In this document: positions 13,168 through 64,000 of the stretch, in pieces
Numbering within the stretch: the first letter of the stretch is position 1
How the letters are laid out: every line of letters starts with the position of its first letter
Virus record (IMG/VR): IMGVR_UViG_3300045740_000123
Location: 1-64,000 of that record
Origin: a virus
Reading direction: 5' to 3' (one strand)
Length of the DNA: 64,000 bases
The notes under the pieces: model-generated
What the model was told of the DNA's origin: nothing
Database searches by the model: none
Seen by the model: the letters and a program-made list of their open reading frames with translations, nothing else
Program-made: the position numbers and the translations under genes

Positions 13168-14325
13168 TCAGATGCTGCCGTCATCAGACACGAAGCTGTA
13201 AGCAGTGGTCACGAAGTCCTTGTTCAGGATCTCGAAGCCGGCGTACAGTTGCCAGATCAGGATGATGAAGCGGCTGAAGTCGTCGTTGTTGTTGATGAGC
13301 ACCTGGGCGTTAGGACCACCGATACCCACACCGATCGACTGAGGACCGAAGAAGTAACCTTGGGCAACTTCTTGGTTGGAGAAGGTGTTTGCACCGTCGC
13401 TGGCGAAGGTAGCAGACACAGTCTTGCTTGGGAAGTTGGTCGACTCGAAGAACTTCACGCCTTCGAACTGAACACCAGTCGGCATCACAGGCTCACCAGC
13501 CAGGAAGTAGCCCTGACCAGCTTGGGGACCCATGTAGAAGCTGGAGTTGTTAGGCATCATGGGGTTACCCATGTACATGCCTTGACCAGGATTGCCGCTG
13601 TAACGAGCGATCTCACGGAAGTCAGGATCACGACGCAGGTGCATCATGAAGGTGGGATCGCAGATGCAACGATACAGACCATCAGCGAAGGTAGGAACGT
13701 TGCGCTTACGCAGGTCCTTAACAACGGTCAGCAGGTCGGTACGCACCTGGAACTGCTGCACATCAGCGGTGTACTCAGCAGCGGTGTAGGAGATGGAGCC
13801 GTTAGCAGCTTTGTTCTTACCACCGGGGAAGTAGTAACCACCCTGGGTGCTGGAGGCTTCACCATTGGCTTCGGCTTTGGCGAGTTCATCAATGAACACG
13901 CGGTCACGCCAACGGCGGTAGTCGTCCAGCAGGGTCAGGCTACCGATGGACTGGTGGAACATGTTGAGGTTCCCGGTGTCCAGCAGCAGACGCTGAGCAG
14001 TGATCAGAGTCTCGCGAGCAATCTTGAAGGTGCTGGGCTGGGTCGGATCACCCGGGTCTGCAGGACCGGTGTATTCCTTAAGCACCACCAGGACTTTCTC
14101 CTTGGTGATGTTACGGCTGTTAGCGGTACCGATGGTCTGATCGGCAATACGCTCACGGCTGTCCTTCGTACCAGGGGTACCCCAGAACTTGTAGCGGTCT
14201 AACTGAACAGTCTGACCAGGCTGGCGAGTGAAGTCATGAACGACCACAGGCTCGACGGCCATTTCTGCGATATACGCAGGGTGGGGACGGTAAAGTTCCG
14301 CACCCAAGATTTTTGGAAAATCGTT
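13168..14325 (-). CDS. major capsid protein, exon 2
   Basis: Strongest codon bias, follows portal and scaffold; DFTRQPGQTVQL and DDFSRF..LIW..YAGF resemble phage MCP termini; begins NDFPKILGAEL with no ATG, in-frame stop just upstream. Confidence 0.8.
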   Translation of the reverse strand, partial: NDFPKILGAELYRPHPAYIAEMAVEPVVVHDFTRQPGQTVQLDRYKFWGTPGTKDSRERIADQTIGTANSRNITKEKVLVVLKEYTGPADPGDPTQPSTFKIARETLITAQRLLLDTGNLNMFHQSIGSLTLLDDYRRWRDRVFIDELAKAEANGEASSTQGGYYFPGGKNKAANGSISYTAAEYTADVQQFQVRTDLLTVVKDLRKRNVPTFADGLYRCICDPTFMMHLRRDPDFREIARYSGNPGQGMYMGNPMMPNNSSFYMGPQAGQGYFLAGEPVMPTGVQFEGVKFFESTNFPSKTVSATFASDGANTFSNQEVAQGYFFGPQSIGVGIGGPNAQVLINNNDDFSRFIILIWQLYAGFEILNKDFVTTAYSFVSDDGSI

Positions 14326-15149
14326 CTCCTGGTCTCTAGTTTCTTAGAGGGGTGGACTATCTCTTCATCCCTGAGGGATGCCGGACGCTAAATCTGGTAT
14401 TACGTAACAAGAACGTGTTACCCCCAGTAGTCTCTGCACCTTCCAATCACGCTTGATTGGCTTGGCTCAGGATTACCCTCGTCTTTACGTTAGGGCTTCC
14501 CTGAATTCATCCGGTTTGCACTCATCGATTGCTCGGTGAGGTGACAACGTTGAGCGTTCAGTTGAGGCATGTTAAGCTTTGGAAACTTGTTTATAAACAA
14601 TATGAATCCAAAACTTGTTCCTGGATTTGGTAATCTTTACTTAACGGAAGAAGGAAAGGCTTTCGAAAAACAGCTTGATCCCGACAATCAAGAATATTTT
14701 CGAGAGATTCCCATCAGATCAACCAGTGTTTATGACCGTATTTCAGTTCTTGTAGATGGAAAACGAAAAAGATTTCATCTTCACGTCTTGATGGCGGTTG
14801 CCTTTTTAGGATTAGATCTGCGTTCTCATGGAACCAGTAACTTTTCCTTACAGGTTGATCACAAAGATAACAACAAGAAAAACAATCGAGTTGAAAATCT
14901 AGAGATCGTTACCAAACAAGAGAATTTAACAAGAGCTTGGAAAAACGGTTGTTACGAAAACAATGGTTTTGCCAGTAAAGGGAAACCGAAAAAATCTTTG
15001 AGAAAGTTTTCTTCGGTCGATGTGGAGCAGATTAAGGCTTTAAAAGAAGCTGGTCTCTCTTATAGAAAGATTGCTGAAAAGTTTAACTGCAACCACGGAG
15101 CTATTTACCAAATCCTAAAAGGATATACCTACCAGGATCTGAACTAGCT
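14326..15149 (-). mobile_element. group I intron in major capsid gene
   Basis: P GAATTCAGGGAA, Q GGTAATCCTGAGCC, R GGTGCAGAGACTA, S GAAGAGATAGTCC in order; 5' splice after U, terminal G; IGS CGTTGTCA (14542-14549) pairs the junction TGAT|AACG with G.U at the splice site. Confidence 0.92.
14602..15147 (+). CDS. intron-encoded HNH homing endonuclease, antisense to intron (alternative start 14569)
   Basis: LHVLMAVAFLG...QVDHKDNNKKNNRVENLEIVT..EN plus C-terminal HTH. Confidence 0.9.
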   Translation: MNPKLVPGFGNLYLTEEGKAFEKQLDPDNQEYFREIPIRSTSVYDRISVLVDGKRKRFHLHVLMAVAFLGLDLRSHGTSNFSLQVDHKDNNKKNNRVENLEIVTKQENLTRAWKNGCYENNGFASKGKPKKSLRKFSSVDVEQIKALKEAGLSYRKIAEKFNCNHGAIYQILKGYTYQDLN

Positions 15150-60067: not shown

Positions 60068-60927
60068 TGCCAAACATCTTTCAAAACTTTCTTAACCAAG
60101 TAACTTCTGGTTATCGCCAAGCAGATAAACAGTTGGGTGGATGGTTGCCAGGGGGTGGCACTGCTTCTCCTGTGACGCGTATAGTATTCCCTCCTCAAAG
60201 CTTTCCTGCCAGAAGCAAAGAGCTTCAACAAATGACAGGCGTCAAAGGACGTTTTGTAGATATTGATAAAACCCCGACAATTACGCGACAAATTGCACAA
60301 ACAGTGGCTCCACTGTGGGGATCGCAGCCCTATGCAAACCCTTTGATTGGCGAGGTTGGCGCCCCCGGTTATAGGGGAGGAGCAACACCAAGAGAAAGAC
60401 ACTTAGAAATTCATGAGCTTGGTCATTTAAATCCAGCCGATAAAGGCATCTATAGTTATTTAGGCGTAGCTGGAAGATACTTGCAAGGACTTAGCAACAG
60501 CACTGGTAACTTACCTGTTGTTGATCTTTTGGCTGGTAAACTAATGAAACATTTTGATGCACAGGAGGAAGACCGTGCAGAACGTTTTGCAGCTCGTTTT
60601 GCAACCCAAGGAAATTATCCTGCTCCTCAAATAAACCCTGAAGGAACCTCTGCCTATGGAGATCGGCTAAGAAAAGAAGGTAGTGAGATGAGCGAAAATG
60701 CTGTTAGTAGAATGCTTAATCCTTGGGGAATCCCTGAAAAAATAACCGGGCTTGTAAATCAACAACGGGCATCTATTCTACAAAATGAATTATCACGCTC
60801 ACTTCCTATTTATCGGGAACGTTTTGGAGGGGAAACCGAGCTTTCTCCAGAAAATTTAAAAGAAACAGAACGTCTTAACAATTTGGCAAAGCAAATAGAA
60901 GCTTTAGGAATTCAACCAAGGTACTAA
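60067..60927 (+). CDS. hypothetical protein with HExxH motif
   Basis: EIHELGH...EEDRAERFA. Confidence 0.55.
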   Translation: MPNIFQNFLNQVTSGYRQADKQLGGWLPGGGTASPVTRIVFPPQSFPARSKELQQMTGVKGRFVDIDKTPTITRQIAQTVAPLWGSQPYANPLIGEVGAPGYRGGATPRERHLEIHELGHLNPADKGIYSYLGVAGRYLQGLSNSTGNLPVVDLLAGKLMKHFDAQEEDRAERFAARFATQGNYPAPQINPEGTSAYGDRLRKEGSEMSENAVSRMLNPWGIPEKITGLVNQQRASILQNELSRSLPIYRERFGGETELSPENLKETERLNNLAKQIEALGIQPRY

Positions 60928-61181
60928 GTTACTGACCAGTGCTCAAGCCTGTGGCAATTGCAGCATAACGGGATGCACTTGCTGATCTCTTCTTCTACTC
61001 GGCCCCAGCCGTAGCCATGGTTCACCATGTCAGATATGTTGTTATCCTTGTCTCCAATGTGGTGAAACTCTAAGACACGGTGATCATCCAACCCACACTT
61101 CTTGCACTGCAGAGTCTTCTTGTACTCCAGAAGCTTCTGTCGATTCTTGTTGATACGTTCCTTGGATTGACTCCAGGGCAT
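60924..61181 (-). CDS. small HNH-like protein
   Basis: CKKCG.....LEFHH...EEISKCIPLCCNCHR..H. Confidence 0.8.
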   Translation of the reverse strand: MPWSQSKERINKNRQKLLEYKKTLQCKKCGLDDHRVLEFHHIGDKDNNISDMVNHGYGWGRVEEEISKCIPLCCNCHRLEHWSVT

Positions 61182-61233: not shown

Positions 61234-61270
61234 TCGGAGATGCAGGATTCGAACCTGCGACCCTCTGCTC
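61234..61270 (-). pseudogene. 3' half of interrupted tRNA (Pro-type acceptor)
   Basis: GAGCAGA-GGGTC-GCAGG-TTCGAAT-CCTGC-ATCTCCG-A. Confidence 0.88.
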
Positions 61271-61662
61271 TATTTAGCTTTTTGTTTCTTCACCTCTCTT
61301 TGCTTTTTACCCGCCTGGCTTTTTGCTGTTTTGCACAAATCACACCGACATCCATATTTGGAATACGACCAAACTGTCCCATGTGTTTGTCGTTTTTCGT
61401 TGGTCCAGCCTTTACCATAACTTCCTTCTTCTAAAGTCTTAATGTGATGACAGGGTTTGCAAAGTAACTGACACTTTTTAAGTTCTGTTTCTAATGTATC
61501 CCAATGGGTTGACCACTTGCAGCTAATATCAAAACTTTTAGAAGTGTGATCTATGTGGTCAATATGCAACAAATCAGAACAGCCGCATTTAATGCAAACA
61601 CCCCCAAGAAAATCAATCATCTCTTGGCGACGTTTTTTGTAATCAGAAATTTTTGAAACCAT
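61270..61662 (-). CDS. HNH endonuclease inside tRNA
   Basis: LGGVCIKCG....LHIDHID...ELKKCQLLCKPCH..KT; HGT...Y..YGCRC..C; ATG 61662. Confidence 0.88.
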   Translation of the reverse strand: MVSKISDYKKRRQEMIDFLGGVCIKCGCSDLLHIDHIDHTSKSFDISCKWSTHWDTLETELKKCQLLCKPCHHIKTLEEGSYGKGWTNEKRQTHGTVWSYSKYGCRCDLCKTAKSQAGKKQREVKKQKAK

Positions 61663-61667
61663 AAAAA

Positions 61668-61738
61668 TCGGGGTGGAAGGTACTGCCCCTTCTCCTCCGC
61701 CTCCCAAAGACGGCGTGATACTTTTCTACTACACCCCG
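61668..61738 (-). tRNA. trnP: atypical tRNA-Pro(UGG)
   Basis: CGGGGTG/CACCCCG acceptor plus A, CCGTC-TTTGGGA-GGCGG anticodon arm, GAAGG-GGCAGTA-CCTTC non-canonical T arm, weak D arm. Confidence 0.75.
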
Positions 61739-61755
61739 AGGGGTCCGATCAATTT

Positions 61756-61788
61756 AGCAGATGCGCTACCAAACTGCGCTAATCCCCG
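61756..61788 (-). pseudogene. 5' half of interrupted tRNA (Pro-type)
   Basis: CGGGGAT-TA-GCGC-AGTTTGGTA-GCGC-A-TCTGC-T; pairs with 3' half at 61234-61270. Confidence 0.88.
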
Positions 61789-61912
61789 GTGTTAGGGCGA
61801 GAGTGTCTGCCTACGATGATCTACGATGCAGCCGAGGGGACTCTTCGTTTAATACGACGTTCCTTGTCGTACCCTTTGCAGCCCCATCGGAAAGAGAGGG
61901 GGTACTTATTTA

Positions 61913-62461
61913 TTATACAGATTCATTGGGTGTTTTCCAGAAATAATCATCGCATTCTCCAAGCCGACCCCACTTCTCTTCCCGATAATCAATATCTTTA
62001 GTTAAAAAATCAATAGCGTTTTTCAATATTTGGATATTGTCTTTGGCGTGGCCAAGCATTGTATTGCATCTATGGCATAAAAGCCCTCTAACCTTGCCTG
62101 TTTCATGGCAATGATCTACACAAAATGTTTTCTTTGGAGCGGGACTGTTTGTTTTGCATATGGCGCAACAACCTTTTTGAATTTCCAGAATTTGTTTGTA
62201 TCTACCCCTAGGTAAACCATAGGAACGCAAACGATCAAGATCATTAGCGTGTTCTAAATTGTTTTGGCGCCATCGATTGTAATTTTCTTGATGGCGCTTT
62301 TTGTTTTTTCTTGACCATTCCCGGCTGTACTCGTTTGTACAAACACGGCACCAAGTATTTAAACCATCTTTGTTTTTCTTTGCTTTGTTAAAAGCATCCT
62401 TGGATTTAATCTCTAGGCATTTGGTGCATTTTTTCGTTGGGAGTTTGCCAGAAATAGTCAT
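61913..62461 (-). CDS. endonuclease VII-type homing endonuclease fused to displaced C-terminus of upstream gene
   Basis: CTKC..CRVC; YGL....Y...L..Q.GCCAIC....VDHCHETGKVRGLLC.RCN..LG; ends KWGRLGECDDYFWKTPNESV. Confidence 0.9.
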   Translation of the reverse strand: MTISGKLPTKKCTKCLEIKSKDAFNKAKKNKDGLNTWCRVCTNEYSREWSRKNKKRHQENYNRWRQNNLEHANDLDRLRSYGLPRGRYKQILEIQKGCCAICKTNSPAPKKTFCVDHCHETGKVRGLLCHRCNTMLGHAKDNIQILKNAIDFLTKDIDYREEKWGRLGECDDYFWKTPNESV

Positions 62462-63095
62462 CGCACTCGCCTAGGCGCCCCCATTTTAACGCTTTTTCAG
62501 AGTCAAAGTATCGAGTCGATACCTTAAAGTCTGGTGTCTTTAGATCGTGGTTGGTGAGCGATGGATCAACCATTCGACAACGATTGTTGGGATAAGCGCC
62601 AATTTGACCGTTGTCCAAAGCCACAATGTTGTGGGACTTATGCTCGTCAGGAAATTCCGCAAAGTAAAAATCCGGTTCGTTCCTATGAGGATGATAATTG
62701 TCAACCGTAAATAGGTATGTGCCTTTCATTACACCTGCACTACGTGTCATAACTTGAAACTCCATATTGAAGATCAAGTTCTTTTCGACAACCGTAAGAC
62801 CATGATCAAATCCATTCCAGAACTGCAGGTCAGTTAGCTCTAGGTCAGGAGTGGGTGCTTGAGGTTTGTCCGGATAATCTGGATCCCATGCCAGGAATGC
62901 ACTGATGGGAAGCTTGTCGTAAAGGGCTCCGTACTCAGTAAGATAAGTCTCAAACTGAAGTGCTCTACCAGTTAAAGATTTACAACTTACCCAATAACCA
63001 GGCGTATATTCACCATGACCGTCTCTTAGGTCACGTAAGTATTCACGCCTTACCCAAACCTTGACGGGCGGGACATTGGCCACAAGAGTTGTCAC
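62406..63095 (-). CDS. conserved hypothetical phage protein
   Basis: 229 aa; LVANVPP..VWVRREYL.D...GHGE, EHKSHN..ALDNGQ..AYPNNR. Confidence 0.7.
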   Translation of the reverse strand: MTTLVANVPPVKVWVRREYLRDLRDGHGEYTPGYWVSCKSLTGRALQFETYLTEYGALYDKLPISAFLAWDPDYPDKPQAPTPDLELTDLQFWNGFDHGLTVVEKNLIFNMEFQVMTRSAGVMKGTYLFTVDNYHPHRNEPDFYFAEFPDEHKSHNIVALDNGQIGAYPNNRCRMVDPSLTNHDLKTPDFKVSTRYFDSEKALKWGRLGECDDYFWQTPNEKMHQMPRD

Positions 63096-63428: not shown

Positions 63429-63736
63429 TTACTATCCTTGTATTTCTTTGCAGCTTCTTTAGCTTTACCGCGCTTTTCATACTCATCTTTCGTCATCCAT
63501 TTCTCCTTGCCCCACTTCTCCAGGGACTTCTGCTTCTCACCTTTACCTCCTTTGTATCCACCGCCTGCACTCTTGTATTCCTGTGCCACAAGCTGAGCTT
63601 TTCTAGCCGAAATAATTAGTTAGCCTTACGGCTACGACCATTCTCCTGGTTTACCGCCACGGCCTTCACGCATAACTTTGTTTTTGATGCGCTCACGCAG
63701 GTCTGGTTTTGTGTACTTGCTTTTATCTTCAGCCAT
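63425..63736 (-). CDS. small basic protein (DUF5872-like) interrupted by 27-nt stop-containing insert; candidate translational bypass
   Basis: MAEDKSKYTKPDLRERIK...GGKPGEWS | ARKAQLVAQEYKSAGGGYKG...; not in ORF track because of internal stops. Confidence 0.8.
63608..63637 (-). other. putative ribosomal bypass (hop) element
   Basis: TCG TAG CCG TAA GGC TAA CTA ATT ATT TCG: matched codons, stop in TAGCC-GTAA-GGCTA hairpin. Confidence 0.7.
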
Positions 63737-64000
63737 AACTTCCTCGCTCTTTAAGATAAGTGACTGCGTTTGTCAATACATCTATATTATCACCAAATAA
63801 ACCTAAGGCTCTATTGCACTCTTTGCATAATAAACCTCTGAACTCATTGGTTTGATGATTATGGTCCATGGCTAAAGATTGTTTATCCTTGGGAGGCTCT
63901 TGGCAAATTGCGCATAAACCTTCCTGGGACTCAAACACAATGTCGTATTGCTCTTTTGTTATCCCTCTGCGTTCGTATTTTTTGTGATTATGATGCAATA
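63729..64000 (-). CDS. endonuclease VII-type homing endonuclease (5' part outside window)
   Basis: GITKEQY.....Q.GLCAIC.....LAMDHNH.T.EFRGLLCKECNRALG. Confidence 0.85.
   Translation of the reverse strand, partial: LHHNHKKYERRGITKEQYDIVFESQEGLCAICQEPPKDKQSLAMDHNHQTNEFRGLLCKECNRALGLFGDNIDVLTNAVTYLKERGSYG

Follow-up and report, generated by a model that had tools for sequence, protein, structure and literature searches.

Group I introns of bacteria and phages sit in the anticodon loops of transfer RNA (tRNA) genes, often together with HNH or GIY-YIG genes, and I-HmuI is an intron-encoded HNH enzyme. Homing-endonuclease insertions in organelles bring a duplicate of the gene end that they displace, and in Aeromonas phage Aeh1, mobE splits nrdA ("genes in pieces"), the protein pieces of which reassemble into a working enzyme. 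Homing endonuclease genes are, to our knowledge, thought to survive in essential genes only by way of self-splicing introns or inteins, or otherwise to lie between genes. The locus reported here is on the minus strand of a stretch of viral DNA of 64,000 nucleotides (nt) (positions 1 to 64,000 of the IMG/VR record IMGVR_UViG_3300045740_000123; hereafter the window), in which a tRNA-Pro(UGG) gene is interrupted at its anticodon by a cassette containing a second, complete tRNA-Pro(UGG) gene and a gene for an HNH endonuclease. This cassette is probably an intron-less homing element of a "cut and replace" type.

SegB of phages T4 and T6 is a free-standing GIY-YIG homing endonuclease encoded in a tRNA gene cluster (PMC2330249; PMC13096335); T4 SegB recognises the TΨC motif GGTTCRANTCC and cuts tRNA genes (PMC2330249). 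F-TflI/II/IV of phage T5 (Akulenko et al. 2004) appear, in the passages of PMC2330249 that cite them, as HNH-type site-specific endonucleases in the tRNA region, and mobE is mentioned in PMC2330249 and PMC2790892. Archaeal split and intron-containing tRNAs are interrupted tRNA genes of another sort: they are rejoined via a bulge-helix-bulge (BHB) by splicing endonuclease and ligase, and the anticodon is kept (PMC4390854, PMC3218864).

The window is part of a single contig of 85,144 nt, and the virus is a freshwater (lake), cyanophage-like one. Its closest match in a cultured phage by megablast is purM of Synechococcus phage S-EIVl (78%), which is the sole match, and no close genome relative was found by this search. 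Read on the minus strand, the locus consists of an 80-nt structured RNA, positions 1-32 of a tRNA-Pro, 485 nt of foreign DNA and positions 37-73 of the same tRNA-Pro. From 5′ to 3′, the foreign DNA is made up of a 17-nt linker, a 71-nt tRNA-Pro(UGG), TTTTT and an HNH gene of 130 amino acids, so that the start codon of the last lies 5 nt past the inner tRNA. The features are as follows.

61756-61788, minus strand: 5′ half of the outer canonical tRNA-Pro(UGG), positions 1-32 (acceptor 5′ strand, D arm, anticodon-stem 5′ strand and U32; direct reading).
61271-61755, minus strand: inserted cassette of 485 nt, replacing U33-G36 (TTGG) (comparison with contig L016).
61739-61755, minus strand: linker AAATTGATCGGACCCCT, 17 nt, between outer U32 and the inner tRNA (direct reading).
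61668-61738, minus strand: inner non-canonical tRNA-Pro(UGG), 71 nt (Rfam tRNA, ARAGORN -mt and covariation).
61270-61662, minus strand: HNH endonuclease gene, 130 amino acids plus stop (PHROG 4234; ATG 61662-61660, TAG 61272-61270).
61234-61270, minus strand: 3′ half of the outer tRNA-Pro(UGG), positions 37-73 (G37, A38, anticodon-stem 3′ strand, variable loop, T arm, acceptor 3′ strand and A73).
61752-61758, minus strand: left copy of the direct repeat GCTAAAT (GCT is G30 C31 U32 of the outer tRNA, and AAAT the first bases of the cassette).
61272-61278, minus strand: right copy of GCTAAAT (last HNH codons, GCT AAA T-AG).

The initial annotation, made from the sequence of the window, had already described a tRNA-Pro split at its anticodon with a tRNA and an HNH gene inside, and its boundaries proved exact. 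Direct reading bears out that the two halves pair with each other in the acceptor stem (CGGGGAT/ATCTCCG) and in the anticodon stem, that U33-G36 are missing, and that the HNH stop abuts the 3′ half; the last G of this TAG is at the same time G37 of the outer tRNA. The composite layout recurs in seven further, independent assemblies (L018, L019 and L117-L121; contigs compared with the window are referred to by L numbers), and is therefore not an assembly artefact. Contigs from three other studies span the cassette and the 5′ junction. Among the contigs listed from four runs, the 5′ junction is bridged and the 3′ junction is not, the latter being covered by the IMG and metagenome assemblies. Joints that skip about 490 nt correspond to generic intact tRNA-Pro genes (24-38 nt, 85% likeness) and were excluded from the evidence for an empty allele. 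A single run labelled RNA-Seq is probably DNA and gave fragments only.

The outer gene has intact counterparts. Its 5′ half reads CGGGGAT TA GCGC AGTTTGGTA GCGC A TCTGC T and its 3′ half GA GCAGA GGGTC GCAGG TTCGAAT CCTGC ATCTCCG A. By an exact-match scan of IMG/VR, 32 nt of the 5′ half are identical to intact tRNA-Pro genes in 9 contigs and 35 nt of the 3′ half to those in 6 contigs. The halves are joined by the loop TTTGGGA of an ordinary tRNA-Pro(UGG) in 14 of the 15 matching contigs, the fifteenth (L007) having a 28-nt insert. An intact allele at the same locus and with the same flanks, as the initial annotation would have it in related phages, is found in L016, which shares with the window both the upstream 80-nt RNA element and the downstream flank. 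In BLAST alignments, window positions 61875-61756 correspond to L016 1331-1451 (95.9%) and 61270-60936 to L016 1456-1791 (88.7%), and the four bases L016 1452-1455 (TTGG, or U33, U34, G35 and G36) stand opposite the 485 nt of the window. The intact allele thus reads CTGCT-TTGG-GAGCAG and the window CTGCT-[485 nt]-GAGCAG. Once split, the outer genes degenerate: the 3′ strand of the anticodon stem has become GCAAT, GCGTT or GCAGT as against GCAGA, this stem is broken in L019, L118 and L119, and in L018 the D arm is 3 nt longer and the variable loop shortened to 4 nt. All pairs are kept in the intact outer alleles. An L118-type outer allele (CGGGATA...) was not found in intact form in IMG/VR. The outer tRNA-Pro gene is dead, and the cassette was inserted into a formerly intact gene.

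An interruption at this place recalls an intron. The outer tRNA might become functional if a degenerate ribozyme, or proteins of the host or the phage, removed the 485 nt from the transcript, in which case the inner fold would be a part of the intron. The well-known habit of group I introns of bacteria and phages to occupy tRNA anticodon loops together with HNH or GIY-YIG genes speaks for this, as do the minimum-free-energy fold, which pairs the outer acceptor strands, and the intron mode of ARAGORN, which forces a 72-nt "tRNA-Leu(aag)" from the halves. The latter call ("tRNA-Leu(aag) with 483-nt intron") was rejected as a forced fit, since it contains an A:G mismatch, drops position 26 and changes its anticodon from relative to relative (aag, cta, aac and taa, by contig). 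Between positions 60500 and 62500 there is no hit to Intron_gpI or to any other intron family, even with E<=10 as the cut-off; that the model can detect a genuine group I intron is seen at 14333-14574 of the window, which scores 97 bits. Moreover, the open reading frame (ORF) reaches the last base of the insert, leaving about 90 nt for a ribozyme core, and the outer anticodon stem is broken in three of the composites, as described above. U33-G36 are in neither half, so no junction gives a proline anticodon and splicing cannot restore the outer tRNA. Manual inspection of the junctions CUGCU|AAAUUG and CUAAAUA|GAGCAG for a BHB gave at most three A-U pairs and no 3-4-3 motif, the junction sequences differ in a second class of cassette, and no closing helix extends the anticodon stem across the cassette ends, the next bases after U32:A38 being A and G. 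The intron explanation is therefore highly improbable, in agreement with the initial annotation, which saw no group I core and considered splicing unlikely.

With the outer gene beyond rescue by splicing, proline decoding would depend on the inner tRNA. This gene (61738-61668) scores 37.5 bits on the Rfam tRNA model, of which the gathering score is 29, and ARAGORN calls it Pro(tgg) in the relaxed mitochondrial mode (-mt) only; the default mode sees neither tRNA. It has C1:G72, A73, the loop UUUGGGA and no encoded CCA. The 85-kb genome, among whose proline codons CCA and CCT account for 35% each, has no other tRNA-Pro, and its other tRNA is Leu(UAA). Since the default mode of ARAGORN reports no tRNA-Pro in this genome, phage tRNA inventories and arguments from codon usage miss such genes. 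The identity set of bacterial prolyl-tRNA synthetase (ProRS) is A73, C1:G72, G35 and G36, and all of these nucleotides are present in the inner tRNA as far as its sequence is concerned.

A pattern for the inner D arm, loop and variable region matches 16 IMG/VR stretches. Across 8 distinct variants, 6 of the 21 pairs have changed on both sides and 94.6% of the cells are paired, a level attained by none of 500 shuffles; in the acceptor and anticodon stems, pairing is 100%. Invariant in all of these variants are the loop UUUGGGA, C1:G72 (G72 is G70 in the 71-nt numbering), A73 and the anticodon UGG with G37. The elbow of the inner tRNA departs from the canonical form: the D loop AAAAGUA is without GG, the T loop GGC(A/G)GUA (GGCAGUA in the window) is without T54-Ψ55, and this holds for all variants, so that the conserved G18 G19/T54 Ψ55 C56 is not present as a set; C56, R57 and one D-loop G remain. 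The motif GGTTCRANTCC is found in the canonical gene and not in the inner one. A GG-less and TΨC-less tRNA-Pro of this kind occurs in more than 20 contigs, and in 13 contigs other than the composites it is free-standing, lacking outer halves and a following HNH gene. In several flank contexts it occupies the very place of the canonical gene (L025 as compared with L016; L022 with L010, L012 and L015; L023, L026, L027 and L036 with L009), and hence behaves as an allele of that gene. Judged from these patterns of variation, the inner tRNA is a real, selected gene under structural selection and an allele of the outer gene. The claim of a divergent replacement tRNA thus stands as to the anticodon UGG and the different body, and falls as to a switch of isoacceptor, because the same anticodon means the same isoacceptor. 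The spare tRNA is, moreover, probably not an invention of the cassette, since it is common as a lone allele at the locus.

It could be argued that the cassette is mobile and its inner tRNA-like RNA does not decode, but serves RNase P/Z as a handle for releasing the HNH mRNA, or acts as a decoy that diverts host nucleases aimed at tRNAs, the tRNA-Pro function having been lost from the phage. The aberrant D and T loops, the failure of default tRNA finders and the short distance between the inner tRNA and the HNH start codon would fit such a role, and the endonuclease genes in the tRNA clusters of T4 and T5 are thought to be controlled by transcript processing (PMC2330249). Against it, the decoding loop, C1:G72 and A73 stay invariant while the stems co-vary; the RNA is found alone, without HNH, at the place of the canonical tRNA-Pro in the 13 contigs; and the retained C56, R57, one D-loop G and A14/A21 would still permit elbow contact. 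A non-decoding role is accordingly regarded as unlikely.

The second gene of the cassette encodes a protein of which residues 9-129 match PHROG 4234, "HNH endonuclease", with an E-value of 4.5e-32. Pfam PF01844 misses its cut-off on this protein (E 0.33) and matches 11 of 19 close homologues (best E 2.9e-4). D36, H37, H40, H73, C24, C27 and C69 are invariant or nearly so in 19 sequences, corresponding to the DH...H and CxxC...CxxC columns, the former catalytic and the latter zinc-binding in a beta-beta-alpha-metal core. An AlphaFold2 model (predicted local distance difference test score, or pLDDT, 84) places strands at 33-37 and 65-69 and a helix at 70-80. A sequence search of the PDB found no relatives of the protein, and the top Foldseek rows for the model are all HNH nucleases (Cap5, Cas5-HNH, T4 endonuclease VII, GVE2 HNH and T5 SciA), with weak E-values of at least 0.2. 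In the seven composite loci that were compared, namely the window and six relatives, the ORF is without exception intact, and the ratio of nonsynonymous to synonymous substitution rates (dN/dS) is 0.03-0.27; by this measure the HNH gene is under purifying selection.

Homologues of this HNH gene keep company with tRNA genes. Among 134 distinct homologues in viral and metagenome contigs, 81 have a tRNA on the same strand at most 150 nt away, and the stop codon of the homologue as a rule touches or overlaps the tRNA that follows, at its 5′ end. Clades of the family track one tRNA identity on either side (Leu-CAA, Tyr, Arg-ACG or Pro-UGG) in a weakly resolved FastTree phylogeny, and the nearest relatives outside the composites (47-57% identity) all abut tRNA-Pro(UGG). 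Cultured phages provide examples: in Stenotrophomonas phage Marzo, the annotated HNH gene, a near relative, overlaps a tRNA-Pro gene by 24 nt, and in Cluster C mycobacteriophages a homologue lies between tRNA-Thr genes. Some members have a partial tRNA beside them, namely a tRNA 5′ half followed by HNH and an intact tRNA-Pro (L127 and L039), a tRNA 5′ half followed by HNH and tRNA-Val (L153), and tRNA-Pro followed by HNH and a minihelix-like remnant (L124). In this last remnant (L124:2400-2460), the acceptor strand CAGGAAG runs almost directly onto the T arm and CTTCCTG-A-CCA, the D and anticodon arms being deleted. By its genomic neighbourhoods, the family PHROG 4234 is a specialist of phage tRNA genes and clusters.

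The composites fall into two classes of cassette, 485 and 458 nt long and 72% alike, with 69% identity between their HNH proteins. In every composite, the junctions are the same, after U32 and before G37. The cassettes of the window and L117 agree at 482 of 485 positions (99.4%), whereas the outer halves agree at 28 of 33 and 32 of 37 (60/70), and the outer acceptors have changed in coordination (CGGGGAT/ATCTCCG and CGAGATG/CATCTCG, respectively). A dead gene cannot gain compensatory changes, so the outer genes of the window and L117 are two different intact alleles, each of which was invaded; the L117-type allele does exist in intact form with the same flanks, in L201-L204. The converse is seen with L121, where the outer halves match those of the window at 33 of 33 and 35 of 37 positions and the cassettes at 351 of 485 only. 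Members of the second class, 93-96% alike, are found in three unrelated downstream contexts, and altogether cassettes occur in at least three outer alleles and at least three flank contexts. One precise site, in otherwise collinear genomes with matching flanks, is empty in L016 and L201-L204 and occupied in the window, L018 and L117. Beyond proline, independent full composites exist for Thr (L147) and Lys (L041-43), so that the order half, tRNA, HNH, half recurs in metagenomes, as anticipated in the initial annotation. Alignment of these contigs demonstrates transfer of the cassette between tRNA-Pro alleles, and comparison of their gene orders demonstrates three allelic states at the locus: canonical, composite, and non-canonical alone.

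Such a distribution has to be weighed against a simple accident. In that case, the tRNA region being prone to recombination, an illegitimate event would have carried an ordinary free-standing HNH gene, along with the tRNA-Pro beside it, into another tRNA-Pro gene; the nuclease would have some other target, and the scar would spread only by descent and by ordinary recombination in the flanks. The usual position of the family between tRNA genes, the wealth of other endonuclease genes in the region, and the varied tRNA remnants beside family members (L039, L127, L124 and L153), which look like messy recombination, would be in line with it. An accident does not readily explain why two cassette classes with 28% divergence have nucleotide-identical junctions across at least three outer alleles and at least three flank contexts, why the halves differ so much more between loci than the cassette that they enclose, why the second outer allele exists intact, or why the HNH clades track tRNA identity. 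This explanation, too, seems improbable.

Three small features of the cassette ends deserve mention. First, the initial annotation had drawn attention to the 7-bp repeat GCTAAAT. It is present at both junctions of the window, but it is not a conserved mark of the junction, as relatives keep 4-6 of the 7 bases (6/7 in L117 and 5/7 in L018; the second cassette class has just TAAG). The window contains 7 copies of the heptamer against a chance expectation of 8, and two copies exactly at both junctions are unlikely to be there by chance (roughly 4e-4 by our estimate). A target-site duplication was considered and rejected, since the GCT of the left copy is the tRNA itself, the empty site reads GCTTTGG, and relatives do not keep the repeat. 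Second, the linker begins with AA[A/G][C/T]TG in both cassette classes, and its C-run (61739-61755; L019:2906-2924), which immediately precedes the inner tRNA, changes in step with the 5′ strand of the inner acceptor stem (ACCCC/GGGGT and ATCCC/GGGAT). It could pair as an alternative hairpin competing with the inner acceptor stem, which, with two classes only, may be chance. Third, in L007 (L007:2946-2999; IMGVR_UViG_3300019487_000019, 183 kb), a canonical tRNA-Pro(UGG) has the 28-nt hairpin-forming insert TAAATGCCTTCGTAAGAGGACATTTTCC between G36 and G37. Its 3′ boundary is the same as that of the cassette and it starts with TAAAT like the cassette; when IMG/VR was searched for short footprint-like insertions following G36 in the canonical gene, this was the single case. 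It could be a footprint, a mini-intron or chance.

The preferred reading, that of an intron-less cassette that cuts and replaces its target, would work as follows. When relatives infect the same cell, HNH would cut their intact canonical tRNA-Pro genes in the anticodon region or close to it, and the break would be repaired from the cassette-bearing genome, with the outer tRNA halves and the matching flanks as homology arms. The new allele would thereby acquire both the cassette and the 4-nt deletion. As the target site is split in the carrier genome, the carrier would be immune. Meanwhile, the inner tRNA, which retains the ProRS identity set (C1:G72, A73, G35 and G36) and G37, would keep up proline decoding of CCA/CCN. 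Because it differs from the canonical gene in every stem and is without the D-loop GG and GGTTCRANTCC, the inner gene presumably escapes recognition by the nuclease. The inner tRNA may be co-transcribed with the HNH mRNA, in which case 3′ processing of the tRNA would leave the HNH message with a 5-nt leader. The canonical allele would then be susceptible, the composite the carrier, and the lone non-canonical allele resistant without a nuclease. More speculatively, the four lost bases may be the mark of the original staggered cut, and the lone non-canonical allele may have given rise to the spare or, conversely, may be what is left once the nuclease gene is lost. With CGGG at the start and CCGA at the end of both tRNAs, microhomology deletions would be possible.

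The predictions that the homing interpretation of the initial annotation makes at the level of sequence have all held, namely an empty allele, recurrence, no ribozyme, and selection on both tRNA and HNH. Several points weigh against the reading, all the same. Where the nuclease cuts, and that it spares the inner gene, we infer rather than observe, and the first insertion requires an illegitimate event. Most members of the family lie between whole tRNA genes with the stop overlapping the 5′ end of the next tRNA, so the usual target may be the tRNA 5′ boundary and not the anticodon loop. The inner tRNA is without the conserved elbow (G18, T54 and Ψ55) and escapes default ARAGORN, and its processing and charging are presumed. 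As a lone gene (13 contigs), it is commoner than the composite, and it may be just the neighbour gene of HNH and not an adaptation to the nuclease. Lastly, the sample is small, with seven composite contigs in two classes.

Wider still, HNH genes of PHROG 4234 might be a general class of "cut-and-replace" elements directed against phage tRNA genes, each lineage devoted to one tRNA identity, invading without an intron and carrying, or lying beside, a nuclease-immune copy, with recurrent attack driving tRNA bodies to shed their D- and T-loop motifs; we give this extension about an even chance. If true, a working bacterial-type tRNA can do without the canonical elbow. The locus in any case bears on the drift of tRNA bodies, as a form with neither G18/G19 nor T54/Ψ55 would replace a canonical tRNA, and its natural empty, occupied and putatively resistant alleles offer a testable case for nuclease targeting of tRNA genes and for turnover of tRNA alleles in phages.

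Other elements surround the locus, with at least four nuclease genes within 3.1 kb. Directly 5′ of the split tRNA is the 80-nt structured RNA (61795-61874, minus strand; GGGUAC.ACAAGGAACGU... ...CUCGCCC), in which 8 of 22 predicted pairs show compensatory changes. It gave no match to Rfam at E<=10. It also occurs in the T4-like cyanophages DSL-LC03 and S-CREM1, as well as in many relatives, and in each case a tRNA gene (Val, Leu or Pro) follows immediately downstream; its terminal hairpin carries a 37-43-nt insert in L018 and L119. About 150 nt upstream of the locus lies an endonuclease VII-type (EndoVII) gene of 182 amino acids (61913-62461, minus strand; PF02945, E 2.7e-25), inserted at the 3′ end of a ferredoxin-like gene (62406-63095). 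It is flanked by a duplication of about 71 nt (approximately 61905-61975 and 62432-62500) that re-creates the ferredoxin-like C-terminus, WGRLGECDDYFW.TPNE occurring twice, and the insert is missing from L016, L018, L117, L121 and L009. By this layout, the EndoVII gene is a second homing-type presence/absence element that brings a replacement sequence for its target. Some 50 nt downstream of the tRNA-Pro locus is an HNH ORF of 85 amino acids (60924-61181, minus strand; PHROG 2255, E 1.7e-20); as it is conserved in the empty-site relatives L016, L009, L023 and L025, it is a resident of the locus and not a part of the cassette. A further endonuclease VII-like ORF (63729-63998, minus strand; CxxC ... 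DHNH ... LLCxxCN) stands at the edge of the window. The group I intron at 14333-14574 (minus strand, RF00028, 97 bits) is immediately upstream of a capsid-like ORF (13168-14307, minus strand) and is abutted by an ORF of 192 amino acids (14569-15147, plus strand) that looks like an HNH/AP2-type endonuclease.

Endonuclease genes in phage tRNA clusters, homing elements in anticodon loops, and elements that carry duplicates of displaced gene ends are thus already known. In a full-text literature search, no published description was found of an intron-less nuclease cassette that splits a tRNA gene and supplies a whole spare tRNA in return. Such a cassette would represent a third route for homing genes, which is to break the target and supply a substitute gene.

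Of the described systems, SegB is similar in being a selfish nuclease gene among phage tRNA genes that cuts the tRNA genes of relatives lacking it, is inherited preferentially together with flanking tRNA genes and recognises a conserved tRNA motif. It differs in that it belongs to the GIY-YIG and not the HNH type, lies between whole tRNA genes, splits none of them and brings no spare copy of its target. The F-Tfl enzymes of T5 share the HNH type and the location within a phage tRNA cluster, whereas the passages of PMC2330249 that treat them mention no split tRNA or nested spare tRNA. Archaeal split tRNAs are likewise interrupted at the anticodon loop, but here there is neither a BHB motif nor an anticodon, and the locus belongs to a bacterial virus. 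With mobE of Aeh1, the cassette has in common a free-standing HNH gene placed in an essential phage gene without an intron; the nrdA pieces, however, function together, whereas the tRNA halves without an anticodon decay. The duplicate-end insertions resemble the cassette, as does the EndoVII gene of the window, in compensating at the DNA level by a replacement sequence that is carried along, but they bring a partial duplicate of the end of a protein gene, and here the replacement is a complete and highly diverged RNA gene. Mobile group I introns of tRNA anticodon loops, finally, share with the cassette the place of insertion, the immunity of the split target and the use of exons as homology arms. 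Unlike them, the cassette has no ribozyme and has deleted U33-G36, and function would be restored by the second gene that it carries and not by splicing.

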